From Candidatus Woesearchaeota archaeon (lineage in GTDB: Archaea; Nanobdellota; Nanobdellia; Woesearchaeales; JBDRGA01), in NCBI GenBank assembly GCA_043818175.1, contig JBDRGA010000046.1:1-56214 (forward strand): 56,214 nt of DNA, read 5' to 3'. Positions within the stretch are counted from its first letter, which is position 1, and each line of letters opens with the position of its first letter. This document shows positions 7,145 through 19,229 of the stretch, piece after piece. Made by a program: the position numbers and the translations under genes. The notes under the pieces were generated by a model, which saw only the letters and a list, made by a program, of their open reading frames with translations, ran no database searches and was not told where the DNA came from.

Positions 7145-7615
7145 TTAAGCTTGCTCCTCAACAGGAATACCATATTTCTCATGAATGATTAGCTTCAGTT
7201 CTTGAAGATGCGATTCTCCCACTTCTTCCGCAATTGCTTTCGCAAAGTACTCAGAAAGGTACTTGTTGCCATGTCCCTCTAGAATCTCACCAATGCATTC
7301 ACCACAAGGATGTCTTCCATTAACCAAATCATTCAGGCAGTCGCACGTAGCGCCTTCACCATGGCCTGGCGTTTTCTCGATACAGTATGTGCATGGTGTT
7401 TCCAAGCAACAGCGATACATGCTTTGAGGAAGCAGGTCCTTTACGATTCCATCGCGCATTTCGAGGTAGTTTTCTCTACGCGCATCCATTGGCATCATAT
7501 CCTGCATCTGATCGTGGAGAATGCCCATCATCCAAAATGGAGCTACGATTGATCCAACGAAGATGCCTAACAAAGCTACGGCAAGCAAGTGTCCTGATTT
7601 TGTATTCAAGTTCAT
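7145..7615 (-). CDS. Membrane-anchored Met/Cys-rich putative metal-binding protein
   Basis: N-terminal TM, MMGILHDQMQDMMPM, 8 Cys (CC, CxxC, CxC, CxxC); last gene of the copper cluster. Confidence 0.7.
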   Translation of the reverse strand: MNLNTKSGHLLAVALLGIFVGSIVAPFWMMGILHDQMQDMMPMDARRENYLEMRDGIVKDLLPQSMYRCCLETPCTYCIEKTPGHGEGATCDCLNDLVNGRHPCGECIGEILEGHGNKYLSEYFAKAIAEEVGESHLQELKLIIHEKYGIPVEEQA

Positions 7616-7627
7616 TTTTTCACCAAT

Positions 7628-8401
7628 TTATACAATCAAATAGTCCTTTGGAACACCTTCATTCAGAGAGTAGATGTGCCATGGTTCTGTTTTCCTCCCT
7701 GGCATGCCGGGAGTTCCAACAGGCATCCTTGGAAGAGCAATACCCTCAATTGCTGGCTGCTCATCAAGAAGTTTGTTCACTACATCTATTGGAACATGCC
7801 CTTCGACGACATATCCTCCAACTATACTGGTGTGGCAGCTCTCCATTGCGCTTGGTATTGAATACTTTTCCTTGATTGGTGCCATGTTTTCAGTCGGGAC
7901 AACCTTGACTTCAAATCCTTGTTTCTCCAGCTCGGCAACATAACCTACACAACACCCACATGAAGGTGATTTGTAGACCGTGACCGTCTTGTCTATTGCA
8001 GAAAATGAGCCAAACGAACGCTCCGTGAAGCTTTTGCCTGCCGCGTCCCACGCATTTGTTCCTCCATCCATATCATATACTGTAGTGTACCCCATTTTTT
8101 GCAAGGTTTGTGCCGCTTCTGCACTCATCGTTCCACTTCTACAATAGACCGCGATTGGTGTATTCTTATCCGTTGGAAGCAATGCTCTGTTTTCTTCAAG
8201 CGCATCGTATGCTATGAATGCATCAGTACCAACTATATGTTTGCCCTCCGGTGTGTGCGTGTCAATGACAAATACAGCTCTATCGCTTATTTTGGCTTCA
8301 AATTGGCCAGGGCTCAATGACTCAATTGTCGGAGTTCTTGGTGTGCACGCAACCAGTATCAATAGTGGCACCATGAGAAGCAGTGCTCTTTTCATTAGCA
8401 T
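7628..8401 (-). CDS. Lipoprotein: rhodanese domain fused to DUF411 (CopG-like) domain
   Basis: Lipobox LVAC; rhodanese YCRSGTMS...MDGGTNAW; DUF411 VYKSPSCGCC...SCHT...VEGHVP...MPVGTPGM. Confidence 0.85.
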   Translation of the reverse strand: MLMKRALLLMVPLLILVACTPRTPTIESLSPGQFEAKISDRAVFVIDTHTPEGKHIVGTDAFIAYDALEENRALLPTDKNTPIAVYCRSGTMSAEAAQTLQKMGYTTVYDMDGGTNAWDAAGKSFTERSFGSFSAIDKTVTVYKSPSCGCCVGYVAELEKQGFEVKVVPTENMAPIKEKYSIPSAMESCHTSIVGGYVVEGHVPIDVVNKLLDEQPAIEGIALPRMPVGTPGMPGRKTEPWHIYSLNEGVPKDYLIV

Positions 8402-8616
8402 CCGCCCACCATAACCGGTTGTGCTTCGGGCTGTTGCTGTGTGGTAGTTGTTCGCGGCGCAGTGGGTGCCACGTTTACAGAACCATCTGATGTGTCCTGC
8501 TTGATGTGGCTTATCTGCACTGCCTGCACCGTCGACACTACGACAAGGGCAAGTGCCACAATAAACAAGACGTATGTTACTATGTTTCTAGTTCCATTTG
8601 TTTCTTCTTTCTTCAT
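8395..8616 (-). CDS. Small membrane-anchored protein ending in MVGGC
   Basis: 73 aa: one TM, a Thr/Gln/Pro linker and C-terminal MVGGC. GGAGGT SD lies 7 nt upstream. Confidence 0.75.
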   Translation of the reverse strand: MKKEETNGTRNIVTYVLFIVALALVVVSTVQAVQISHIKQDTSDGSVNVAPTAPRTTTTQQQPEAQPVMVGGC

Positions 8617-8617
8617 T

Positions 8618-9274
8618 CTAACAACCTCCTACCATGCTTCCTGCTGTTTGTCCTTGTTCTATTCCTCTGTATTTGTTGCTCGCTACGTTCACGTATGAAG
8701 TTTCTATCCCTTGCTCTTCAAGGATTTTGGCTTTAGCTTGTATTTGAGTGGGGAAGAACAGCGCTTTCCATTTTCCTACTTCTTCAAGTATTTGAGCATC
8801 AGTATATTCCACGCCATGTTTTGTTATCAAGTATTTTGCCAAGCCTCGCATCGCGTAGCTATGCGCACACCCGCAAGCAGGCTCTCCATTCTCGAATATA
8901 ATTGAACGGGCACCGCAACAGTACTCACAGCTCATTCCGTTTTCCATGCGATATAGTATGTTGATGTACCTTTCTTTGTCCGCTCCTTCAAGTTTGACGC
9001 TTCTATCGATATTGCCCATTATCCGTATCGTAGCATCCGCCAGTTGCGGATCGTTGGGAGAAACATCGTCATAGTTCACTTGAAGTTCGTCTCCATATGT
9101 TGCTGGTGTGCCCTGCGGCACGATGCCCGTAAGCGTTGTTACCTGCTGCGCTACCACTCCTTGAGTTGCCTGACTTACTGCCGGCGCCACACTTTGAAGC
9201 GCGCTTGCATTGTAGCCGGCAAGAACAACTGTGATGAGCAGGACTGCAGCCGTGCTGTATTCTAGTGCATTCAT
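8618..9274 (-). CDS. Exported Cys-cluster protein ending in MVGGC
   Basis: N-terminal hydrophobic anchor, CEYCCG and CGCAHS motifs, C-terminal MVGGC. Start moved to the ATG at 9274 (GGAGG at 9282-9286) because 9319 lies inside the promoter. Confidence 0.8.
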   Translation of the reverse strand: MNALEYSTAAVLLITVVLAGYNASALQSVAPAVSQATQGVVAQQVTTLTGIVPQGTPATYGDELQVNYDDVSPNDPQLADATIRIMGNIDRSVKLEGADKERYINILYRMENGMSCEYCCGARSIIFENGEPACGCAHSYAMRGLAKYLITKHGVEYTDAQILEEVGKWKALFFPTQIQAKAKILEEQGIETSYVNVASNKYRGIEQGQTAGSMVGGC

Positions 9275-9310
9275 TCTTGTCCCTCCATGTATTTCATGCA
9301 ATTCACGGAT

Positions 9311-9349
9311 GTGAAACACCTTTAAGAAGTACCGGCGAAACTGGTTTCA
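9311..9349 (-). promoter_or_regulatory. Internal promoter/operator of the copper cluster
   Basis: Minus strand TGAAACCAGTTTCGccgGTACttcTTAAAGgtGTTTCAc; 28/39 identical to 13458-13496. Confidence 0.75.
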
Positions 9350-9352
9350 CAA

Positions 9353-11575
9353 TCAGATTCTCTTCGTCTTCAACAGCAACGAATTACTCACAACACTAAC
9401 AGAACTCAACGCCATTGCCGCGCCAGCGATGATGGGGCTCAACATCAGTTTGGGGTTGCCTGTTATGACATAAAGCACTCCTGCTGCTATTGGTATTCCC
9501 AACACATTGTAGAAGAACGCCCAGAAGAGATTCTGCTTTATCTTCGCCATTGTTGCTTTACTAAGTGCAATTGCTCGTGGAACGTCCCTTAAGTCATCCT
9601 TCATTAGCACTATGTCTCCTGTTTCCATCGCAACATCAGTTCCCGAACCCATTGCGATTCCAATGTCAGCCTGCGCCAGTGCGGGCGCGTCGTTAATTCC
9701 ATCTCCTACCATTGCTGTCGGCCCGTTTAATTGAAGACGCTTCACATTTTCCGCCTTGTCCTGGGGGAGCACGTCAGCAAACACATTTCCTTCCTTTATT
9801 CCAGCTTGCAAAGCTATTGCTTTTGCAGTTCGTTCGTTGTCTCCTGTAATCATGTAAACGTTAATTCCAAGGTCATGAAGTTTCTTAATCGCTTCTTTAG
9901 ATGTTGGCTTTAGTGTGTCAGCAACTGCAATTAACCCAATTAGTTTCCTTCCTTCAGCAAGAACCATCACTGTTTTGCCTTGTTCTTCCAGAGCACGTAT
10001 TTTTCCCAGAACATCTTTGAGTTCCACGCCTTGTTTCTTCATTAGGCGTTCATTTCCAAAATAGTACTCTTTCTTTCCCAGTTTCGCAATGATTCCATGA
10101 CCAGGAATTGCCTTGAACGAAGAAGCGTGAGTTATCTTCATTTTCTTTTCTTTTGCATGGTTCACAATTGCTTCAGCCAACGGATGTTCGCTTCCCTGTT
10201 CGATGCTTGCTGCTATTAAGAGCAAGTCATCTTCTTTTCCAGACACTGGAACCAAATCAGTTACCTTTGGTTTGCCATATGTTACAGTTCCTGTCTTGTC
10301 GAGCACGATGTTTTTCAGGCGGTGCGCAGTTTCAAGTGAATCACCACCTTTGATTAGTATTCCTTCCTTTGCTCCTTTGCCCGTGCCCACCATTATTGCT
10401 GTTGGTGTGGCAAGTCCTAATGCACAAGGACAAGCTATTACCAAAACTGCTACTGCTGCTATGAATCCAAGCCCAGTCTGTCCTGCCAAAGCCCACGCAA
10501 TCAAAGTCAGCACGGCAATCCCTAATACAATGGGAACAAAATAACTGCTTATCACGTCCGCAAAACGCTGTATTGGTGCTTTTCTTGACTGAGCATCCTC
10601 AACAAGTTTAACTATTCTGGCCAGAGTTGTGTTCGTGCCTACTTTTGTAGCCCTAAATTGTATGCTTCCGTGGGCATTGATCGTACCACCAATCACTTCA
10701 TTTCCAACATTCTTCTCTACGGGCATGCTCTCTCCTGTTATCATGCTTTCGTCGATGCTCGTATTACCTTTGATAATAATTCCATCAACAGGTATTTTTT
10801 CGCCCGGCTTCACTATTATGATGTCTCCTTGGCGTACTTCATCGACGGGGATGCGTGTCTCAGTGTTACCTCGGAGGACTAAAGCTTGTTTTGGTTGCAA
10901 ACCAACAAGTTTCTTTATTGCTTCTGATGTTCGTTGCTTTGCTCTGTGCTCGAGAACTTTTCCCAGTATAACAAGAGTGATAATAACTGCAGCTGCCTCG
11001 AAGTACTGTCCTAGTTCCATGATTTTTCCGCTTAATATTGTATATACGCTGAAAAAGTAAGCAGCACTCGTTCCCAACACTATTAGCGTGTCCATGTTGG
11101 CGCTCTTGTTTTTTAGAGCTGCCCATGCTCCTTTGTAGAATACACTTCCAACGTAGAACTGTACTGGTGTTGCAAGAATAAAAAGTATCCATGCAGCGTA
11201 GGGCATCGCGATTCCAGCAAAGAGAACGCTGTCCGACATCATGAACATTCCTATGATAAATGCAGGCACGCCAAAAAGAAGGCTTACTGTGAGTCTGTTC
11301 TTCAATGATGTGAAAGCTTCCTTGTCTGCTGCGCTTTTTGCTTCGTATGGATCTTTGCTGCTTGCATTCAGGATAACGTCGTATCCTTTGGAACGTATTG
11401 CTTTTACGAAATCGTCTTCCTTCGCATTATTTGGGTCAAAAGTTATGCTTGCTTTTTCTGTAGCGTAGTTGACGTTGGCATCAGTTACACCAGGAACCTT
11501 CTTCAGTGTTCTCGTAAGTAAGTTAGAGCAGCTTGCGCAGTGCATTCCTGTTATCTGCAATTCTTTTTTTGTCAT
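9353..11575 (-). CDS. copA: Cu(I)-translocating P1B-type ATPase
   Basis: [43 protein letters not shown], and YN...PI plus MALSS P1B-1 signatures. Confidence 0.95.
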
Positions 11576-11781
11576 TATTCCACTTTGTATCCTTCTGCCG
11601 TTATTGCTGTCTTTATAGTCTTCTCATTGACTTTACTTTCGTCATAACTTACAACCGCGAGGCCCTTTTGATGGCTTATGTCTACTTTGCCAATACCGTC
11701 AAGGTCAAGCAAGGCATCCCTTATCAGTTCCTCACAGCTTGAGCAATGCATTCCTTTTATCTTTATTGTTGAACTTTTCAT
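11575..11781 (-). CDS. copZ: Copper chaperone (HMA domain)
   Basis: 68 aa, GMHCSSC; stop overlaps the copA start. Confidence 0.9.
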
Positions 11782-13445
11782 TGTGACACCTTGAACTCAC
11801 CTATCTTGCTTCCCATGCTGCACGTGAACGCTACTGTTCCAGGCTCAGTCGGTGTGAACTTTAGCACACTGTTTCCTTGAGTTATTCTGTGCGCAACTCC
11901 GTATTTTGGCACGAGTATTGTGCTTGAGCATCCTCTTGGAACCACTTCCGCATTAATGTTCAGTTCAACAGGTACCCCAGTCGTCACATCAAATGTCCTA
12001 GGATTCCATCCTTGCTGATTAATTGTCATGTCGAGTTTTTGAACAGAACACTCAGCAAACTGAGGATCACACCCCGTCACTACTGGTGCTATCACTTCGG
12101 CTTTTTGCTGCACAGGTGCATCATTTGGCAGTACGGTTATACTCGCTCCGAGCGTGGTCATTGCCATTGGACAGCTGAATCTGAAAGTTCCTGCCTTAGT
12201 AGGTGTGAACTCTATCACTTTGACTGGACCTCTTGTGGCGTACGCTGTGATGTCAAGTCCGGGCACTACAACTACTTGCGCACATCCAGAAGCAGTATTA
12301 CCATCAATTTCCCACCTTACTGGCACTCCTTGCTTTACTGTGAATTGTGCTGGCTCATATTCAAGCCCGTTGATTTTCATCTTTATGGTTTGCAAGCCTT
12401 GTGTGACCACTGCTTGTGGTGCCGTAGATGTTCCTATGACATTTATTGGCGCTGTCGCAAGTGTTATCCCGTTATTCAAACTGAATATTCCCAATGTTAT
12501 AACTAGAACAGCACTTGCCTTTGCTACGTACTTGTAAACATTTCCTTTGGTAAAGCTCGTTAATGCACCTATTCCAAGCAGGCCTGGTAAGGTTCCTATG
12601 CTGAAAGCCAGCATTACTAATGCGCCTTGTATTGGATTGCCTAAGGTTAAGACATACAATTGTAGTGCCTGCGTGAACCCACACGGAAAGAAGAAACTCG
12701 TAGCACCAAGACCTGCAGCACCAATTGTGCTTGGTTTCTGACTCGACTCATATGCCTTGTGCGCGAATATTTTTGGCATCTTGAAGCTAAACCTGCTTAG
12801 GACTCGTATTCCAAGCAGTTGTAATCCTAGAATCACCATTGCAGCGCTAACAACAATTGTGATTATGCCTGTTACACCCATGCTGATTGAGATTACACCA
12901 CCAAGTAGTGCAAGTAATCCACCAAGAACGGTGTAGCTAACTATTCTTCCTGCGTTAAAGGCAAGGTTTGGTTTGAAACGCTGCATACCTGTAGCATTTG
13001 GAAACTTTGTTCTCCATCTGTTTGCAATTGCAAGTAACAATCCTCCTGTTACGGCCATGCATGTGCTGAACGCTGCTACAACACCTAGTCCAAGTGCCAG
13101 ACCAAAACTCACATTTTCAGTTATGCCTATGTTTGGAAGAATGTCAAACTGCTTCAAAAGCAAGTAAGCACCAAGAAGTACTATAATTATGCCTCCGAAC
13201 TCGGCTATCTCCCTTGAGCGTTTGCGTTTAGCATCTCCAATCTGTATTGTGTACTTTCCTTCTCCTAGAGCATTTTGCAGTTCTGTCGTTGTTATAGCGC
13301 GATTGCACCGCAGTTCAGCGGTTCCTCTGGAGTGGTCTACTTTAACTCGCTGCACTCCTCTTACTTTCCTGAACTTTCGTTCTATCAGGACTTCGCAGCT
13401 CGCGCAGGTCATTCCATTTATCTTGAGTGTTACTGGTTTTGCCAT
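11778..13445 (-). CDS. HMA + DsbD_2/TauE-like membrane domain + two cupredoxin-like domains
   Basis: GMTCASC; TM domain with FSTCMAVTGG and FFPCGFTQ; two repeats GC...F(S/T)C(P/S)M. Confidence 0.85.
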   Translation of the reverse strand: MAKPVTLKINGMTCASCEVLIERKFRKVRGVQRVKVDHSRGTAELRCNRAITTTELQNALGEGKYTIQIGDAKRKRSREIAEFGGIIIVLLGAYLLLKQFDILPNIGITENVSFGLALGLGVVAAFSTCMAVTGGLLLAIANRWRTKFPNATGMQRFKPNLAFNAGRIVSYTVLGGLLALLGGVISISMGVTGIITIVVSAAMVILGLQLLGIRVLSRFSFKMPKIFAHKAYESSQKPSTIGAAGLGATSFFFPCGFTQALQLYVLTLGNPIQGALVMLAFSIGTLPGLLGIGALTSFTKGNVYKYVAKASAVLVITLGIFSLNNGITLATAPINVIGTSTAPQAVVTQGLQTIKMKINGLEYEPAQFTVKQGVPVRWEIDGNTASGCAQVVVVPGLDITAYATRGPVKVIEFTPTKAGTFRFSCPMAMTTLGASITVLPNDAPVQQKAEVIAPVVTGCDPQFAECSVQKLDMTINQQGWNPRTFDVTTGVPVELNINAEVVPRGCSSTILVPKYGVAHRITQGNSVLKFTPTEPGTVAFTCSMGSKIGEFKVSQ

Positions 13446-13457
13446 GATGTTTGAACT

Positions 13458-13496
13458 ATGAAACGGCTTTATAAGGTACTGATGAAACCAGTTTCA
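13458..13496 (-). promoter_or_regulatory. Main promoter/operator of the copper cluster
   Basis: Perfect palindrome TGAAAC-CA-GTTTCA (13483-13496), TATA CTTATAAA (13468-13475) 30 nt before the ATG at 13445, and a second half-site GTTTCA. Confidence 0.8.
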
Positions 13497-13533
13497 AGGG
13501 TAGATTTTTAAGCAGAAGCATGATTATTGTTGT

Positions 13534-14025
13534 GTGGAAGCATCACAAACTAGATGGATTGGGTACGCATTGCTTGCAGTAGGCGTATTGCTAATAATGA
13601 TTCTGGCCGTAGTAAAAGTAAACACGGACAGAGAGGGTGCGTTCATGTGTGAACTTGTTGAAGCTTCACCTGATTTGTCCATGACTGACTGTCCCGCACA
13701 TAATAGCAGCACATCGTGGGTTGTACTTGTCGGTTTTGGCTTTGCGGCTTTGGTGCTTGCCGCGGGAGCATATTTGGCGTTCGTACAAAACATGCAGGGC
13801 ACTTCTAAACCTGCGACGAAGCCAAAGGACATCAAGCTTGATTCAGAGGAATCCAAGGTTGTCGAAGCAATTAAGCAGGCAGGCGGAAGCGTATTCCAAG
13901 GAGACATCGTAAGAGAAACGGAGTTCTCGAAGGTCAAGGTAACAAGAATTCTTGATAGACTTGAGACAAAACAGGTCATCGAAAGAAAGCGTAGAGGCAT
14001 GACCAATCTTGTCGTGCTGAAATAG
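13534..14025 (+). CDS. Membrane-anchored winged-helix (MarR-like) transcription regulator
   Basis: Two TMs flanking the loop MCELVEASPDLSMTDCPAH; C-terminal wHTH FQGDIVRETEFSKVKVTRILDRLETKQVIERKRRGMTN; divergent from the copper cluster. Confidence 0.8.
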   Translation: MEASQTRWIGYALLAVGVLLIMILAVVKVNTDREGAFMCELVEASPDLSMTDCPAHNSSTSWVVLVGFGFAALVLAAGAYLAFVQNMQGTSKPATKPKDIKLDSEESKVVEAIKQAGGSVFQGDIVRETEFSKVKVTRILDRLETKQVIERKRRGMTNLVVLK

Positions 14026-14074
14026 CATAATCTTTATATACGCTTCCGGCATCATTCATTCGAGGTGTTACTCT

Positions 14075-14806
14075 ATGAAAGCACTACTTGTAATAATGAT
14101 AGTCGCGGGCCTTATGCTCGCTGCCTGCACCGCAGGCAACACAAGCCAGCCCAAACCGGCTGACGATAACAATGCAGCCAACCAAGAAACTGCTCCATCT
14201 GGTGATTCTGCAGGAACCACGGATGATTCGATGAAGAACGAGAAAATCGCGCCTGCAGATGACGCAAGCGCTGAGTGGAAGTCTTTGGTAGGCAAGAATG
14301 TTGGTCTATCATTTATGGTGAAGTATGAAGTTCAATCAAATGCAAATGGTCAGGCAACAAATGCTGAAATGACTCAATACTCAAAATCCGGAAAGTCCCG
14401 TGTTGACAGCATGGCACAGGGCATGGAGTCAAGAGCATACATGATGGACAACAAGGTTTATTCATGCATTAACCAAGGTACGTGGATGTGTTTCGCTGCT
14501 GACTCTCAGCAGGATAGTGGCGCGGACTTGACCAAGTACAACGATGATTCCAAAGCGTATCAGGTAACTGCAATGCCTTCGAGAAACATTGCAGGAAAAA
14601 CGGCAAAGTGCTTCCAGATTATTGTCGAGAGCGCAAAAGCACAGTATTGCTTGAGTCCGGAGGGCGTACCTTTGTACATCATGAGCGAAGGTTCTGAAGG
14701 AGGCGTTTCATACACCTCAACCATGACAGCAAAGGAATACAGTACTTCAGTGAGTGATTTAGTATTCGAATTGCCAGCAGAGCCGACAGCGATGCCCACG
14801 TATTGA
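14075..14806 (+). CDS. Lipoprotein, paralog of 25975-26709 (possible LolA/DUF4412-like fold)
   Basis: Lipobox LAAC, low-complexity linker, four Cys, FELPAE near the C-terminus; GAGGTG SD. Confidence 0.7.
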   Translation: MKALLVIMIVAGLMLAACTAGNTSQPKPADDNNAANQETAPSGDSAGTTDDSMKNEKIAPADDASAEWKSLVGKNVGLSFMVKYEVQSNANGQATNAEMTQYSKSGKSRVDSMAQGMESRAYMMDNKVYSCINQGTWMCFAADSQQDSGADLTKYNDDSKAYQVTAMPSRNIAGKTAKCFQIIVESAKAQYCLSPEGVPLYIMSEGSEGGVSYTSTMTAKEYSTSVSDLVFELPAEPTAMPTY

Positions 14807-15606: not shown

Positions 15607-15981
15607 ATGATTGTCAATATAGATTTGGGTGTTGTTGAGACTCTAGTAGACCTCGCCAGTCAAGCCCATCCGAAAGAAACTGTGATGATTCTTGAGGGTT
15701 CGAACAGGAAGGGTGAGATTAAGGTTACTGGAGTTCTTTTTCAACAGTATTCAGCAAACGAGAACAGCACGCATTTCAATCTAGATTTACCAATGGGCAC
15801 TAAATCCGTTGGAACGTTTCATTCTCATCCCGGACCAAGCAACAGGCCTTCTCAGGCAGATTTGAAGCTGTTTGAGAAGTTCGGTCTAGTGCACTTCATA
15901 GCGCATTACCCGTACAGAATTGAAGATTTCGCGTGCTATGATAAGATGGGCACACGAGTCCCTTTTTCTGTCTCGAACTAA
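15607..15981 (+). CDS. JAB/MPN+ (JAMM) metalloprotease
   Basis: HPKET...GTFHSHPGPSNRPSQADL matches E-HSHP-x7-S-xx-D. Start at 15607 is 28 nt after the TATA box. Confidence 0.9.
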   Translation: MIVNIDLGVVETLVDLASQAHPKETVMILEGSNRKGEIKVTGVLFQQYSANENSTHFNLDLPMGTKSVGTFHSHPGPSNRPSQADLKLFEKFGLVHFIAHYPYRIEDFACYDKMGTRVPFSVSN

Positions 15982-18900
15982 CCTTCGTGATGATGCGTTG
16001 GCTTCTTGGGCCTGCGCCATGCTGCAAATATGATGGCCAGGACAACTATGAATGCCAGTCCTATGAAGTATGGAATCGCACTTCCACCACCTTGATCTTC
16101 CTTGGTGGATTCTGCTGCTTTACCCGCTAGGTTCTGCTCGTCAGTCGCCGCAACTTTAGCCTCATCTTGAGCAGGCAAATCCTCAGCCACTTCACTCACT
16201 TCTGGCTCGATTGCTGGTTCCGCACTTGCCTTCTCAGCTCCAATTGCGAAAGTGCTGAACCCAGGTGTGTTGAAGCGGTATGTTTCTTCTGTTATTTTCG
16301 TGGGTTTGAACATCTGCCATTCTCCAGCTGAAAGCCTGAAAAGCCTGACGTTTCCTGCAAGAATACCATTTTCTTCCAACCAGGATTCGGGAACCCTCAC
16401 TTCTATCCACGCGTTTCCGACCGTTCCCATGTTCTTGAGAGTTATTTCCAAGTACTGGTAGACATGTCCATTAGGTGCTTCCTTAACGCTACTTGGTTTG
16501 CCTGAAGCATACTGCTGCACTAATACTTCGCCCTTGCTGACAGCATTCTCTGGCTTGAATCCAACTCCGACAACGCTAATTTTCGGGTCGTCAATCTTCA
16601 TACTTATAGCCTGTCCTGCGGGTACCGCGCCCCAGAACTGTACTCTGTTTGGATTTGTGTTTCTGGGTGCGCTACTACCGCCACTGCCACTGCTACTTGT
16701 TGTACAGCTTTGAGAGCTACTTTCTGAAGTTGAGCCACCACCATAACATGTTCTTGTCCTTGTCCTGGTCTGTGAGCTTGACGAACAGGTGCTCCAGTCA
16801 CTCCAGTCACTCCATCCTCCATCGCATGCAGAAGGCGTTATGTTCTTGGTGTTATTCACTGTTACTGTGCTGTTATGATTTGCACCATCATCAAGTGACG
16901 TTATAACGTATGAATATGCCATTTCTGAAGTCATAGTAGTATCCTGATACCATGCATTTGTTGTATTGGCAAGGGCTGTATTTGTATTGCTTGTATTCAG
17001 ACTGCTTATGTTTGTGGTTCGGAAAACATAATATGTCATTGCCAAATCCGCATTTCCATCGACGTCAAGCGTTACTGCTGTCCATGTAATGTTTACGGCA
17101 CCATTCGTTTTTGTGGAACCATTGGCAGTTGTGGGCGAGCGTGGCATTAATGTATCGTCAGCGGTCGCATTATAACTGCTTGATACGATGCTCTTGTTCT
17201 CGTTTGAAGACGCATCGAGACTTGTTATAGCATACCAATACGTCGTGCTGTCTGTTGTTGTATTATCCTCAAATGTTGTGTTAGTGAGCGCAGCAATTGC
17301 TGTCAGTGCTGCTGCGCTAGTTATTGCTGTAGTTGACCGGTACACCTTGTAGCTTGCTGCATTCGCGTCAGCAGTCCAGTTCAGCTCTATGTTACCATCA
17401 CTGTCAGAATCATTTACACCTACTTGTGTTAGCGTTGGAGCTGTTGTTGGGGGTGTAGTATCTATAACTGTAAAGTAATACAACCCGCTGAAGTTAGCTG
17501 CGTTGCTTAAATTATCTTCAACCTGAATTGTCCAGTTATGTGTTGTACCACTGACGAACCCTCCAACAGTGAAGTTGGTTGCTGTGTTGTTGCCTGCTGT
17601 TAATCCTGTGGCATTGGCAACTCCATCAAGGAACAACGTGTAGTTCAATATCGTATCAATTCCATCATAACTTGTAAAGTTGAACGTTACGATGGTATCT
17701 GACGCGTTTGAGTTGTTACTTGGGGCATTTAGTGTCGATACCACTGGTACTGTCGCATCTATCTTCAATACGAGGACGCTGCTGTTGGCAGCATTACCAT
17801 TGTTGTCCGTGGCTTGAACTTCAATATCGTGACTTCCATCCTCTAGTATTGATGTCACGGCAACCGTTGGCGTTCCATTGAGTGCAGTGCCAGAGGCAAC
17901 TGATACACCATCTACATAGATAACATAACTGAGGTTCGTGTCCATGTTATCTGTGAGGGTGAAGTTGATTTCAGGCGTGACATCATTTGTCCAGGAATCA
18001 TTTGCAGGCGACGTTATATTACTGGTTGGCACAGTTGTATCTACGTGAATTACAACAGACCCGTTTGCCAGGTTTGAAGCACTGTCAGCAGCTTCTATCA
18101 CTACAGTGTACGTTCCATCCAAAAAAACTCCCAATGTAACACTCTTCACAGTATTGTTTGTTGCGTTTCCCGTGCCGCCAGCAACACCATTTACATAAAG
18201 GGTGTAGTTGATGACTGTGTCTGTTTCATCAGTTAAAATAAAGTTGATGTCTGGCGTCGTATCCGTAGTCCAAGAATCATTTGCAGGCGAGGTAATTACA
18301 CTCGTTGGTGCAGTTACGTCTACTGTCAATACTATTGCTGTGCTGTTCACGCTGTGTAGTGCACTGTCAGTGGCCTGCACGAGCACAGTATACACACCCG
18401 CGCCCAGAACGCTGAGTTCTACGACTGTTGGTGTGTTGTTCAGTGCACTACCTGTCTGATTTGCAGAGCCATCTACATACACAACATAACTTAAGTTGGT
18501 ATCCAGACTATCCGTGAGCGTAAATGTGATTGCTGGAGTTGTATTTGATGTGGATGTGTTATCTGCAGGAGATGTTATCACACTGGTTGGATTTGCAGTA
18601 TCTACGTGAATAACCAAGGCAGTACTATTGAACATGTTTCCTGCTTCGTCCTCTGCCTGCATTATTAGAGTGTACGTTCCTTCTGGTGTTGCACCCATCG
18701 TAAGCGAAGAAACTGTGTTGTTGCTTACATTACCAGTAAGGTTTGCTACACCATCAACGAATAGCGTGTAGTTTAGCATGGAATCGTACACGTCAGTTAT
18801 CGTGAAGTTAATGCTCGGCGTCGTGTTCGTAGTCCAAGAATCGTTACCAGGAAAGGTAATATTGCTAGTTGGGTAACCCGTGTCGACATTAACTGTCCAC

Positions 18901-19229
18901 GTAGCACTGGTTGAGGAATTCTCCAAGTCTGTACAATTTACATTCCAGAGTCTGGTTCCCTGGGACAAACTTGCATTAGCCGTGATTATCGTGCTCGTAT
19001 CATTGAACGTTGTAGCGTTGATACCGAAACCTACGTTATCTACCAAGAGTTCACATGAGAAGTTTCCGCTGCTATTGCTTATCGCGGTGAACGTGAAGCC
19101 AGGAGTTGCACTGGGCACCCACAGATTATCAGCTGGCGATGCTGGTGCTACACTGCTAATCCCTGCCCAAACTGTATTCGCAGCGAGAATTGAAAAAACT
19201 ATTGCCAGAATTATATTACTAGTTCTCAC
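15978..19229 (-). CDS. Large cell-surface glycoprotein: Ig-like repeats, FN3-like domains, TSP1-like motif, PGF-pre-PGF domain, C-terminal TM
   Basis: Signal peptide; about 6 repeats of ITSPANDSWT.D.TP.INFT.TD..D..LNYT.YVDG; WSDWSDWSTC...TRTRTRTC; VYQYLEI...TPGFSTFAIG; TM plus basic tail; more than 40 N-x-S/T sequons. Confidence 0.9.
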   Translation of the reverse strand: MRTSNIILAIVFSILAANTVWAGISSVAPASPADNLWVPSATPGFTFTAISNSSGNFSCELLVDNVGFGINATTFNDTSTIITANASLSQGTRLWNVNCTDLENSSTSATWTVNVDTGYPTSNITFPGNDSWTTNTTPSINFTITDVYDSMLNYTLFVDGVANLTGNVSNNTVSSLTMGATPEGTYTLIMQAEDEAGNMFNSTALVIHVDTANPTSVITSPADNTSTSNTTPAITFTLTDSLDTNLSYVVYVDGSANQTGSALNNTPTVVELSVLGAGVYTVLVQATDSALHSVNSTAIVLTVDVTAPTSVITSPANDSWTTDTTPDINFILTDETDTVINYTLYVNGVAGGTGNATNNTVKSVTLGVFLDGTYTVVIEAADSASNLANGSVVIHVDTTVPTSNITSPANDSWTNDVTPEINFTLTDNMDTNLSYVIYVDGVSVASGTALNGTPTVAVTSILEDGSHDIEVQATDNNGNAANSSVLVLKIDATVPVVSTLNAPSNNSNASDTIVTFNFTSYDGIDTILNYTLFLDGVANATGLTAGNNTATNFTVGGFVSGTTHNWTIQVEDNLSNAANFSGLYYFTVIDTTPPTTAPTLTQVGVNDSDSDGNIELNWTADANAASYKVYRSTTAITSAAALTAIAALTNTTFEDNTTTDSTTYWYAITSLDASSNENKSIVSSSYNATADDTLMPRSPTTANGSTKTNGAVNITWTAVTLDVDGNADLAMTYYVFRTTNISSLNTSNTNTALANTTNAWYQDTTMTSEMAYSYVITSLDDGANHNSTVTVNNTKNITPSACDGGWSDWSDWSTCSSSSQTRTRTRTCYGGGSTSESSSQSCTTSSSGSGGSSAPRNTNPNRVQFWGAVPAGQAISMKIDDPKISVVGVGFKPENAVSKGEVLVQQYASGKPSSVKEAPNGHVYQYLEITLKNMGTVGNAWIEVRVPESWLEENGILAGNVRLFRLSAGEWQMFKPTKITEETYRFNTPGFSTFAIGAEKASAEPAIEPEVSEVAEDLPAQDEAKVAATDEQNLAGKAAESTKEDQGGGSAIPYFIGLAFIVVLAIIFAAWRRPKKPTHHHEG

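Follow-up and report, generated by a model that had tools for sequence, protein, structure and literature searches.

The archaeal CopR/CopT regulators (Pyrococcus furiosus PF0739, Saccharolobus/Sulfolobus CopR and Halobacterium VNG1179C) are copper-responsive, and CopR probably stays bound to its target while it switches between repression and activation (PMC7830388). As the initial annotation of the locus described here had stated, these characterised archaeal copper regulators are soluble, with CopR being an Lrp-TRASH protein (PMC7830388). A periplasmic Cys pair is used by CadC (PMC3096576). Transmembrane transcription regulators, defined by a predicted DNA-binding domain together with at least one transmembrane (TM) segment, are widespread and include archaeal members (PMC10269533); no mention of copper or other metals was found in this census. 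Here, we analysed a stretch of 56,214 nucleotides from a Candidatus Woesearchaeota archaeon (contig JBDRGA010000046.1 of assembly GCA_043818175.1, hereafter the window), in which the gene of a small membrane-anchored protein with a winged helix-turn-helix (wHTH) domain, the regulator, diverges from a row of copper-related genes that carries two copies of a 38-bp promoter/operator module. DPANN archaea are mostly uncultivated and their gene regulation has been little studied. Our analysis points to a transmembrane one-component regulator that senses copper via an extracytoplasmic loop and acts on the module, and we assign a probability of about 0.6 to this model as a whole. Literature searches on DUF7343 (the family of the wHTH domain), COG2512, DPANN copper regulators and transmembrane one-component copper sensors returned no description of the family, in agreement with the initial annotation, which knew of no characterised example.

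Two promoter/operator modules in the window

The initial annotation had reported two matching segments of 39 bp on the minus strand. The segments are real, but they are 38 bp long with an ungapped identity of 28/38, and the low-end coordinate had been off by one. Both contain every element that had been described, namely a palindrome TGAAAC-N2-GTTTC(A/G) at module positions 1-14, GTAC at 18-21, a TATA-like box at about 22-30 and a further GTTTCA at 33-38, which sits exactly 24 bp past the GTTTC of the palindrome. Their placement was also described correctly, as one copy precedes the first gene of the operon and the other the sub-operon of the gene MVGGC218, named after the C-terminal residues of its 218-aa product.

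Module 1, with its TATA-like box at 13467-13475 and its third half-site GTTTCA at 13464->13459, is separated by 13 nt from the start codon of the first operon gene (ATG, 13445). This ATG corresponds to module position 52, and the centre of the TATA-like box is about 27 nt away. Since this is the usual archaeal spacing between start site and TATA centre, the transcript of the HMA-DsbD-cupredoxin gene, copZ and copA is probably leaderless, and module 1 probably drives this unit. Module 2 (palindrome TGAAACCAGTTTCG at 9336-9349, TATA-like box at about 9320-9328, half-site at 9317->9312) begins 3 nt past the copA stop codon, upstream of MVGGC218, and, as judged from its sequence and position, would be an internal promoter of the MVGGC cassette. 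The predicted transcription start site near 9298 leaves a 5' untranslated region with GGAGGG before the likely ATG at 9274.

The intergenic region between the operon and the regulator gene (13445-13534) is mirror-symmetric about the dyad centre at 13489.5, with the operon ATG and the regulator GTG each 44.5 nt away from it. TATA-like boxes lie about 19 nt on either side, whereas the third half-site is present on the operon side only. The regulator therefore probably shares the operator for its own expression and escapes the effect of the third half-site. Its transcript is probably leaderless.

Taken alone, the 28/38 pair is borderline, as direct 38-mer pairs with at least this identity occurred 0 and 1 times in two shuffles of the window. 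The palindrome with at most one mismatch is found twice in the window versus 0.44 expected, a number that 6 of 100 shuffles reach. A 38-bp weight matrix was built from 68 sites of other genomes only (maximum possible score 56.9 bits). It scored module 1 with 45.6 bits and module 2 with 44.0 bits, and the maximum over 30 shuffles was 9.4 bits. The next-best score in the window (19.2 bits) belongs to the reverse, plus-strand reading of palindrome 1, and all other matches are reverse readings of the two palindromes. Hence, the scan for more sites that the initial annotation had suggested revealed no third module in the 56 kb of the window. A scan for sigma-70 promoters and intrinsic terminators, which are irrelevant to an archaeal locus, gave counts at or below the shuffle expectation.

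A membrane hairpin joined to a minimal winged helix

The description of the divergent gene product as TM segment, loop (M-C-x13-C-P-A-H), TM segment and wHTH domain was borne out by the open reading frame (ORF) at 13534-14025, by Pfam and by a structure model. The protein comprises TM1 (aa 9-27), the loop (aa 28-62), TM2 (aa 63-81), a basic linker (aa 89-103) and a minimal winged helix (aa 104-162), and with a wHTH domain at 104-162 and hydrophobic segments at 9-27 and 63-81 it falls under the definition of transmembrane transcription regulators in PMC10269533. The loop motif reads F-M-C39-x13-C53-P-A-H56. Residues 103-162 match Pfam DUF7343 (PF24034) on profile positions 2-61 of 62 with 49.9 bits (cut-off 27.6), and the same domain is carried by all listed homologs of the regulator.

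The AlphaFold2 (AF2) model based on an alignment of 40 sequences has a mean predicted local distance difference test (pLDDT) score of 92. Its membrane part consists of a long helix (3-44), a short cap with helix 54-57 and a return helix (60-88), so arranged that C39 ends the extension of TM1 and C53-P-A-H opens the return helix. The linker (89-103) is modelled with low confidence. It is followed by the winged helix with helix 104-115, strand 119-121, helix 122-129, recognition helix 133-145 and a beta wing at 149-162. Foldseek aligned only this winged-helix part, over about 60-70 residues with low root-mean-square deviation, to MarR, CzrA, MecI and BlaI (E about 1e-3 to 1e-2). The regulator remains below the Pfam cut-offs for MarR_2 (26.5 vs 27) and MarR (18.6 vs 24.6), and a search of the PDB with the regulator profile gave weak MarR matches only (best E 0.013).

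In the regulator alignment, C39 is invariant and C53 and P54 are at least 90% conserved, and the TM segments contain two glycines, G10 and G78, that hardly vary. Despite an overall identity of 35-50%, the family shows almost no variation in the recognition helix region FSKVKVTRILDRLE and in the wing ERKRRGMTN, and K133, V134, K135, R138, D141, R151, R153, R154, G155, M156 and N158 of the winged helix do not vary at all. Two TM segments and an acidic loop are predicted in 116 of 120 relatives, which carry many Lys and Arg residues at the N-terminus and directly behind TM2. The loop faces outward, because the DNA-binding domain must be cytoplasmic.

A pair of Cys residues is present in the loop of 118 of the 120 relatives, and in about 110 of these the second Cys is followed by His or Met (CP[AV]H, C[PTS]M[YW] or CPH). 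The long-loop form C-x11-13-CP[AV]H, to which the regulator of the window belongs, accounts for 75 of the 120; among the approximately 43 short-loop relatives, about 35 have C-x5-7-C[PTS]M[YW] or C-x6-CPH. Two thiolates combined with an imidazole or a thioether form a typical soft-metal ligand set for Cu(I), and the Cys2-His/Met residues of the loop may provide such a set.

Module, regulator and target genes co-occur across genomes

Three samples of loci were compared. The regulator-seeded sample comprised the 80 best loci from species-level genomes (920 kb). The palindrome with at most one mismatch occurs 71 times in these loci, versus about 2 expected by arithmetic for uniform composition, and nearly always once per locus. 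A site of at least 18 bits is present in 66/80 loci, usually 0-50 nt past the stop codon of the regulator. In 11 loci (L006, L013, L018, L025, L036, L039, L041, L058, L060, L066 and L077) the TGA stop of the regulator is the first triplet of the palindrome. In about 20 loci, the distance from the module to the start codon is 13-17 nt; this is consistent with leaderless transcripts and sets the position of the module with respect to the start site.

The consensus of 69 gap-free aligned sites is TGAAACTAGTTTCA cca.TA.tTa.atAaG.TGTTTCa. GTAC, which the initial annotation had listed among the shared elements, was ruled out as a conserved element, since only its central TA is kept outside the window. 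The third half-site GTT[TG]C is found at +24 in 55 and at +23 in 5 of 65 distinct sites that had been chosen by their palindrome; on the opposite flank of the same 65 sites, which served as a control, it occurs at +24 in 3.

For the motif-seeded sample, metagenome contigs were scanned for TGAAAC-N2-GTTTCA-N18-GTTTC, which yielded at least 120 loci, and the matches were split into promoter-like and bare ones by the matrix score of the unspecified positions. Among the matches listed, a regulator gene ends at most 120 nt upstream of 31/56 promoter-like but of only 1/38 bare sites (Fisher p 2e-8), and several further promoter-like sites have a regulator at -186 to -2223 nt. The genes after the promoter-like sites, within the same listed matches, encode CopZ and/or CopA in 16 cases (one with HMA-DsbD), MVGGC218 in 11, DUF411 in 3 and HMA-DsbD alone in 1. 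The target-seeded sample started from long contigs that encode MVGGC218 homologs. In each of the three loci with DNA, the module precedes the transcription unit that contains MVGGC218, and a DUF7343 gene is found within 4 kb.

Absence of the motif from orthologous loci, or its failure to co-occur with the regulator, had been named beforehand as the observation that would speak against the proposal; the link between module and regulator held in all three samplings. Together with the joint invariance of recognition helix and operator, the co-occurrence of regulator, module and copper or envelope-thiol genes is indirect support for binding, and from this sequence evidence we consider it very likely that the regulator protein binds the operator.

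In the regulator-seeded loci, the first gene downstream of the module encodes an MVGGC218 homolog in 39 cases, DUF411 in 6 and HMA-DsbD in 4, with several more HMA-DsbD genes behind a spacer that is 1 bp shorter. Among the remaining downstream genes are those for small secreted Met/His-rich proteins, CxxC membrane proteins and thioredoxin-like proteins, and thioredoxin/DsbA-like genes follow operators in other loci as well. Other genes directly after operators were noted in L048 and L052 (both at about 8400-8700), L016, L049, L021, L067 and L005. Their products include small secreted Met/His-rich proteins, CPCCGQ...CCGM proteins with a C-terminal half that is thioredoxin/peroxiredoxin-like by eye, membrane proteins with AHCPLCTVG and a 126-aa protein that is DUF302-like by eye.

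Variants of the module were observed as well. A second promoter class before CopZ/CopA genes reads TGAAACTAGTTTCA-TACAAT-nnn-TTATAAG-CTGTTTCT (metagenome loci such as L108, L122, L124, L147, L155 and L162). In a third class, before HMA-DsbD genes, the spacer is 1 bp shorter and the half-site is GTTGCA or GTTACA (L008, L011, L022, L034, L038). Locus L130 (414-473) contains one palindrome with complete modules, i.e. TATA box and half-site at +24, in both directions and CopZ-like genes on both sides.

Regulator subfamilies and their targets

A word index retrieved 209 relatives of the regulator, and a profile search 184 clusters at E<=1e-30 and 859 at E<=1e-10, all of about 150-190 aa; 484 relatives are found among species-representative genomes. 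Those with names come almost exclusively from Woesearchaeota/Nanoarchaeota, with some from Aenigmatarchaeota, Diapherotrites and Pacearchaeota.

Short-loop relatives precede HMA/DsbD/CopA operons and have the same palindrome directly past their stop codon, for example TGAAACTAGTTTCA in L203 and AGAAACTAGTTTCT in L204. In a partial sample, which is no census since the strict regular expression missed some regulators including both paralogs of L206, long-loop regulators pair with MVGGC218 or DUF411 in 27/28 assignable cases and short-loop regulators with CopZ or HMA-DsbD in 6/8. The window is atypical in that both kinds of target adjoin one long-loop regulator, the gene of which diverges from them instead of pointing in the same direction. 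No second paralog of the regulator is encoded within the 56-kb window; this genome may contain a further one elsewhere.

Tandem DUF7343 paralogs with the loops C-x9-CPM and C-x6-CFA are encoded in L206 (100-582 and 617-1075). The first has a divergent recognition helix (GKVGITR), and the operator follows the second gene. Paralogs with different loops would share one operator and could therefore integrate several signals on it. In L201 (5950-6000, 11570-12040), the related sequence ATGAACTTGAGTTCAT followed by TTATTTAAA lies upstream of the short-loop regulator P0110, which is followed by a cupredoxin and methyltransferases, and a second DUF7343 gene adjoins a thioredoxin gene.

Genes downstream of the modules

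The genes controlled in the proposed model form a tight row on the minus strand from 13445 to 7145 (Table 1). Homologs of the HMA-DsbD-cupredoxin gene follow the operator in other loci, too. The CopA translation contains CPC, YN and AMALSS, corresponding to the P1B-1 signatures CPC, YN(x)4P and M(x)2SS, and we take the CPC/YN/MALSS motifs to indicate Cu(I) specificity according to the established P1B classification.

MVGGC218 has at least 1890 homologs with 55-73% identity, all of which are labelled hypothetical, and is better conserved than the regulator that precedes it. It has no match in Pfam, NCBIfam or the PDB sequences and no Foldseek match to the PDB below E=1. The AF2 model (pLDDT 90) shows an N-terminal membrane anchor and an all-alpha domain. 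Invariant are SCEYCCGA...ACGCAHS..MRG..KYL..H and the C-terminal MVGGC. In the 39 other genomes in which the module precedes a homolog, the MVGGC tail is kept in 25/39. The operator flags this large conserved family without a fold match as a core output, which is a pointer to copper/thiol biology.

Small proteins similar to the 73-aa neighbour (MVGGC73) follow MVGGC218 in L066, L190 and L205-L207. The MVGGC pentapeptide also ends small membrane-anchored proteins that are unrelated to MVGGC218, namely this 73-aa protein and a 77-aa protein in L050 (8513+), and was also noted in L059; as a shared tail, it may bind metal or serve as a signal for processing or attachment. DUF411 corresponds to CopG, which is copper-induced within a CueR regulon (PMC12341060). 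Homologs of the 156-aa Cys-rich protein (Cys156) follow DUF411 in L041, L066 and L080, and a PCYCGC-domain protein takes a similar place in L207. No family was identified for the 73-aa and 156-aa proteins in Pfam, NCBIfam, the PDB sequences or by Foldseek.

Table 1 Regulator, modules and downstream genes in the window. Coordinates refer to the first letter of the window as position 1.
Feature	Coordinates	Strand	Details and basis
Regulator gene	13534..14025	+	163 aa, GTG start; ORF list
Codons of the extracytoplasmic loop	13615..13719	+	aa 28-62; proposed sensor residues M38, C39, M50, C53, P54, H56
Codons of the winged-helix DNA-binding domain	13843..14019	+	recognition helix region FSKVKVTRILDRLE, wing ERKRRGMTN
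TATA-like box of the regulator promoter	13504..13512	+	ATTTTTAAG; spacing to the palindrome as in module 1, third half-site lacking
Operator palindrome 1	13483..13496	.	TGAAACTGGTTTCA; dyad centre 13489.5, exact match; common to the two divergent promoters
Module 1	13459..13496	-	38 bp, read 13496->13459 TGAAACTGGTTTCATCAGTACCTTATAAAGCCGTTTCA
Module 2	9312..9349	-	38 bp, read 9349->9312 TGAAACCAGTTTCGCCGGTACTTCTTAAAGGTGTTTCA
HMA + DsbD_2 membrane domain + two cupredoxin-like domains	11778..13445	-	555 aa; Pfam HMA, DsbD_2, Cupredoxin_1
CopZ-type HMA metallochaperone	11575..11781	-	68 aa; Pfam HMA, E 7.9e-17
CopA, P1B-1 Cu(I)-exporting ATPase	9353..11575	-	740 aa; TIGR01511 (ATPase-IB1_Cu), 659 bits vs cut-off 397
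MVGGC218, membrane-anchored, all-alpha, Cys-rich	8618..9274	-	218 aa; most frequent direct operator target
Membrane-anchored protein, also MVGGC-ending	8395..8616	-	73 aa; ORF list
Rhodanese + DUF411 (CopG-like) lipoprotein	7628..8401	-	Pfam
Cys-rich membrane-anchored protein, last cassette gene	7145..7615	-	156 aa; motifs CC..PCTYC..C.C....CGEC

On the other side of the locus, the regulator is followed by a gene for a 243-aa lipoprotein-like protein (14075-14806, +) with a TATA-like box at about 14031-14039 and GAGGTG; it lacks the operator and a family match. A Thr/Ser/Asn-rich surface protein of 1083 aa (15978-19229, -) is anchored in the membrane at its C-terminus and contains many internal repeats. 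This protein is probably behind most of the 189 direct 38-mer pairs with at least 28/38 identical positions that were counted in the window without a list of their positions.

Proposed mechanism

We propose that the regulator is a membrane helical hairpin with an extracytoplasmic Cys2-His cap, a flexible basic linker and a cytoplasmic minimal winged helix. Two winged helices, paired via the membrane hairpin, would bind TGAAAC-N2-GTTTCA at about -51 to -38, just upstream of the TFB recognition element (BRE) and the TATA box, and a further subunit would occupy the GTTTCA half-site at about -20 to -14, between TATA box and start site. The regulator would thereby control HMA-DsbD-cupredoxin/copZ/copA, the internal MVGGC218/MVGGC73/rhodanese-DUF411/Cys156 cassette and probably its own mirror-image promoter. 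As the signal, we propose Cu(I), or thiol oxidation driven by copper, on the outer side of the membrane. Binding at the Cys2-His site would alter the association of the hairpins and hence the number of the three half-sites that are filled. At rest, full occupancy including the -20/-14 half-site would block RNA polymerase, while with copper the palindrome-bound dimer would permit or stimulate recruitment of the TATA-binding protein (TBP) and transcription factor B (TFB). The comparisons above show the architecture, the conservation of the module with its three half-sites and its reciprocal association with the regulator and with copper and envelope-thiol genes; DNA binding, ligand, oligomerisation and sign of regulation are what we infer here, and for the sign the odds are close to even.

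The adjacency of gene and operator would suit a membrane-bound factor, as coupled transcription, translation and insertion would deposit the protein beside its target. Where the stop codon of the regulator is part of the palindrome, insertion into the membrane during translation would thus place the protein beside its only target. As a tentative extension, which we place somewhat short of an even bet, the DPANN family as a whole could represent a one-component Cu(I) sensor of about 160 aa, with a Cys2-His/Met cap at the outer face and a regulon for envelope copper defence that is controlled from the membrane.

Several observations weigh against this model or parts of it. The linker varies from about 11 to 50 residues across relatives and is of low complexity; as it is variable and disordered, a rigid allosteric relay is unlikely, and control of proximity or oligomerisation or proteolytic release is a more plausible way to carry the signal. 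According to the AF2 model and Foldseek, the winged helix has no dimerisation element of its own, and pairing on the palindrome would therefore have to come from the membrane part. The geometry is ambiguous. Known archaeal activators bind upstream of the BRE and known repressors over or downstream of the TATA box; the palindrome upstream of the BRE suggests activation, the -20/-14 site repression. In the regulator-seeded loci, the operator precedes copA only in L022 and L038, and elsewhere the best palindrome before copA has 2-5 mismatches, so that copA belongs to the variable and not to the core part of the regulon. Long-loop regulators across genomes have the MVGGC cassette, and not copA, as their core target. 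Furthermore, there is no TGAAAC palindrome within 12 kb of the short-loop paralog P0110 in L201. Finally, the loop Cys pair could be a structural or redox disulfide instead of a metal site.

Alternative explanations

This last point leads to the alternative that survives best. It accepts that the regulator binds the operator and denies that the loop is a copper site: the two cysteines would form a disulfide, either redox-sensitive or purely structural, by which envelope thiol or oxidative stress is reported, or the protein would be a constitutive anchor and a partner, for example MVGGC218, or a protease that releases the winged helix would act as the sensor. We regard this as rather unlikely overall; for the sensing step, a redox or structural role of the Cys pair is to be taken seriously. 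The presence of DsbD-like, DsbA/thioredoxin-like and rhodanese proteins in the regulon would fit this alternative, as would the precedent of a regulatory periplasmic disulfide in CadC (PMC3096576); the flexible linker suits proteolytic or partner control and the most conserved target is the Cys-rich MVGGC218. A plain disulfide, however, does not need the third soft ligand, His or Met, that follows the second Cys in both subfamilies, and the targets include bona fide Cu(I) exporters and chaperones. In addition, the records of the relatives suggest groundwater and sediment sources. Such DPANN habitats are often anoxic, and extracellular disulfides would be disfavoured there.

It is considerably less probable that the 38-bp module is bound by another, unlinked transcription factor and that the regulator is merely a conserved neighbour or a co-regulated gene. 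Co-occurrence is correlation only, the module lies 0.3-3 kb from the regulator in some loci, and 25/56 of the motif-seeded sites listed have no regulator within 120 nt. Yet many of these 25 have a regulator at -186 to -2223 nt or little upstream flank, and a DUF7343 gene is present in all target-seeded loci. The regulator is also the only DNA-binding gene that is consistently found beside the module, which often overlaps its stop codon, and its invariant recognition residues match an invariant operator.

Instead of an operator for a protein, palindrome and half-site could also be a hairpin, of RNA or of a single strand, with which the gene before them ends at its 3' side and which acts as a terminator, stability element or attenuator. 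Either GTTTCA could base-pair with TGAAAC, a stop codon usually precedes the module, and site 1 has a folding z-score of -2.15. This reading was rejected because there is no covariation and the folding z-scores are weak: paired columns are invariant, the one variable outer pair breaks in 18/59 and 10/59 sequences, and site 2 (z -0.40) folds no better than shuffles. Moreover, the loop of the short hairpin would have only 2 nt, what is conserved between the arms is a TATA box, site 1, which is located between divergent genes, has no gene upstream of it on that strand, and no Rfam family was found at the sites in a scan of the window that gave a tRNA only. We consider a hairpin very improbable. 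That the two segments resemble each other by chance or as generic archaeal promoters is hardly credible, since, although shuffled windows contain about 0-1 pairs at 28/38, the matrix from independent genomes gives both sites about 45 bits, the rest of the 56 kb never exceeds the palindromes' own reverse readings, and a generic promoter signal would match many genes.

Comparison with known systems

A membrane-bound copper sensor of the proposed kind would share features with several described systems. The CopR gene likewise lies beside, and often divergent from, copA, and the CopR motif is located between divergent TBP/TFB sites; an always-bound switch, as proposed here, would resemble P. furiosus CopR (PMC7830388). 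CopR differs in being a soluble Lrp-type HTH protein with a cytoplasmic C-terminal TRASH domain (plus a His stretch in Thermococcales), the octamers of which wrap about 150 bp around a weak semi-palindrome (PMC7830388). The regulator of the window, in contrast, is embedded in the membrane, its candidate metal site is extracellular, and its proposed operator consists of a sharp 14-bp palindrome and a half-site; neither a TRASH nor an Lrp/AsnC domain was detected in it with Pfam and NCBIfam.

The bacterial proteins ToxR, CadC and TcpP are likewise one-component regulators with a membrane-tethered DNA-binding domain, a sensor across the membrane and a target promoter beside the gene. In ToxR-type proteins, an OmpR-type winged helix at the N-terminus is followed by one TM segment and a folded periplasmic domain at the C-terminus, whereas the order is reversed in the regulator of the window (TM, loop, TM, wHTH), which begins with the TM hairpin and has a sensor loop of 35 residues and an archaeal TATA/BRE promoter. 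In the Pfam scan, Trans_reg_C (OmpR-type) was absent and no sequence relationship to ToxR-type proteins was found.

Within the archaea, ArnR and ArnR1 of Sulfolobus acidocaldarius are membrane-bound one-component regulators with two TM segments and sites upstream of the promoter (PMC6396743). They differ by an N-terminal HTH, a HAMP domain, a cytoplasmic sensor and a C-terminal TM pair, and act on archaellum/pilus genes in starvation; neither an extracytoplasmic Cys loop nor a metal regulon is described for ArnR in PMC6396743. The domain order of the regulator is opposite, and the Pfam scan detected no HAMP domain.

In bacteria, extracytoplasmic copper sensing with induction of copper export and Dsb-type envelope thiol genes relies on two-component systems, namely CusRS, CopRS and DsbRS (PMC10100754; bioRxiv 10.1101/2020.08.17.255257), which follow the same regulatory logic and have a similar regulon. 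In these systems, a histidine kinase and a response regulator communicate by phosphotransfer, while the regulator of the window unites sensor and DNA-binding domain in one polypeptide. Lastly, the winged-helix fold and palindromic operators are shared with MarR, ArsR-SmtB and BlaI-MecI-CopY proteins, which differ in that they are soluble and dimerise via extra helices; MarR-type N- and C-terminal dimer-interface helices around the wHTH domain were not found in the AF2 model of the regulator.

The class of transmembrane transcription regulators is thus already known, and new would be the architecture, the putative extracytoplasmic Cys2-His sensor loop and a defined archaeal operator with its predicted regulon. 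Regulator, operator and regulon form a triplet at base-pair resolution, with predicted start sites and operator half-sites that flank the TATA box, and offer a first entry point to gene regulation in DPANN archaea. If the model is true, this would be the first extracytoplasmic metal-sensing one-component regulator in archaea, as far as found, and the uncultivated Woesearchaeota would gain their first defined regulon, promoter and operator. It would also offer a minimal model of signal transmission and target finding by membrane-tethered transcription factors, and would represent a third design of copper sensing beside the soluble cytoplasmic metalloregulators (archaeal CopR; bacterial CueR, CsoR and CopY) and the two-component kinases (CusS, CopS).

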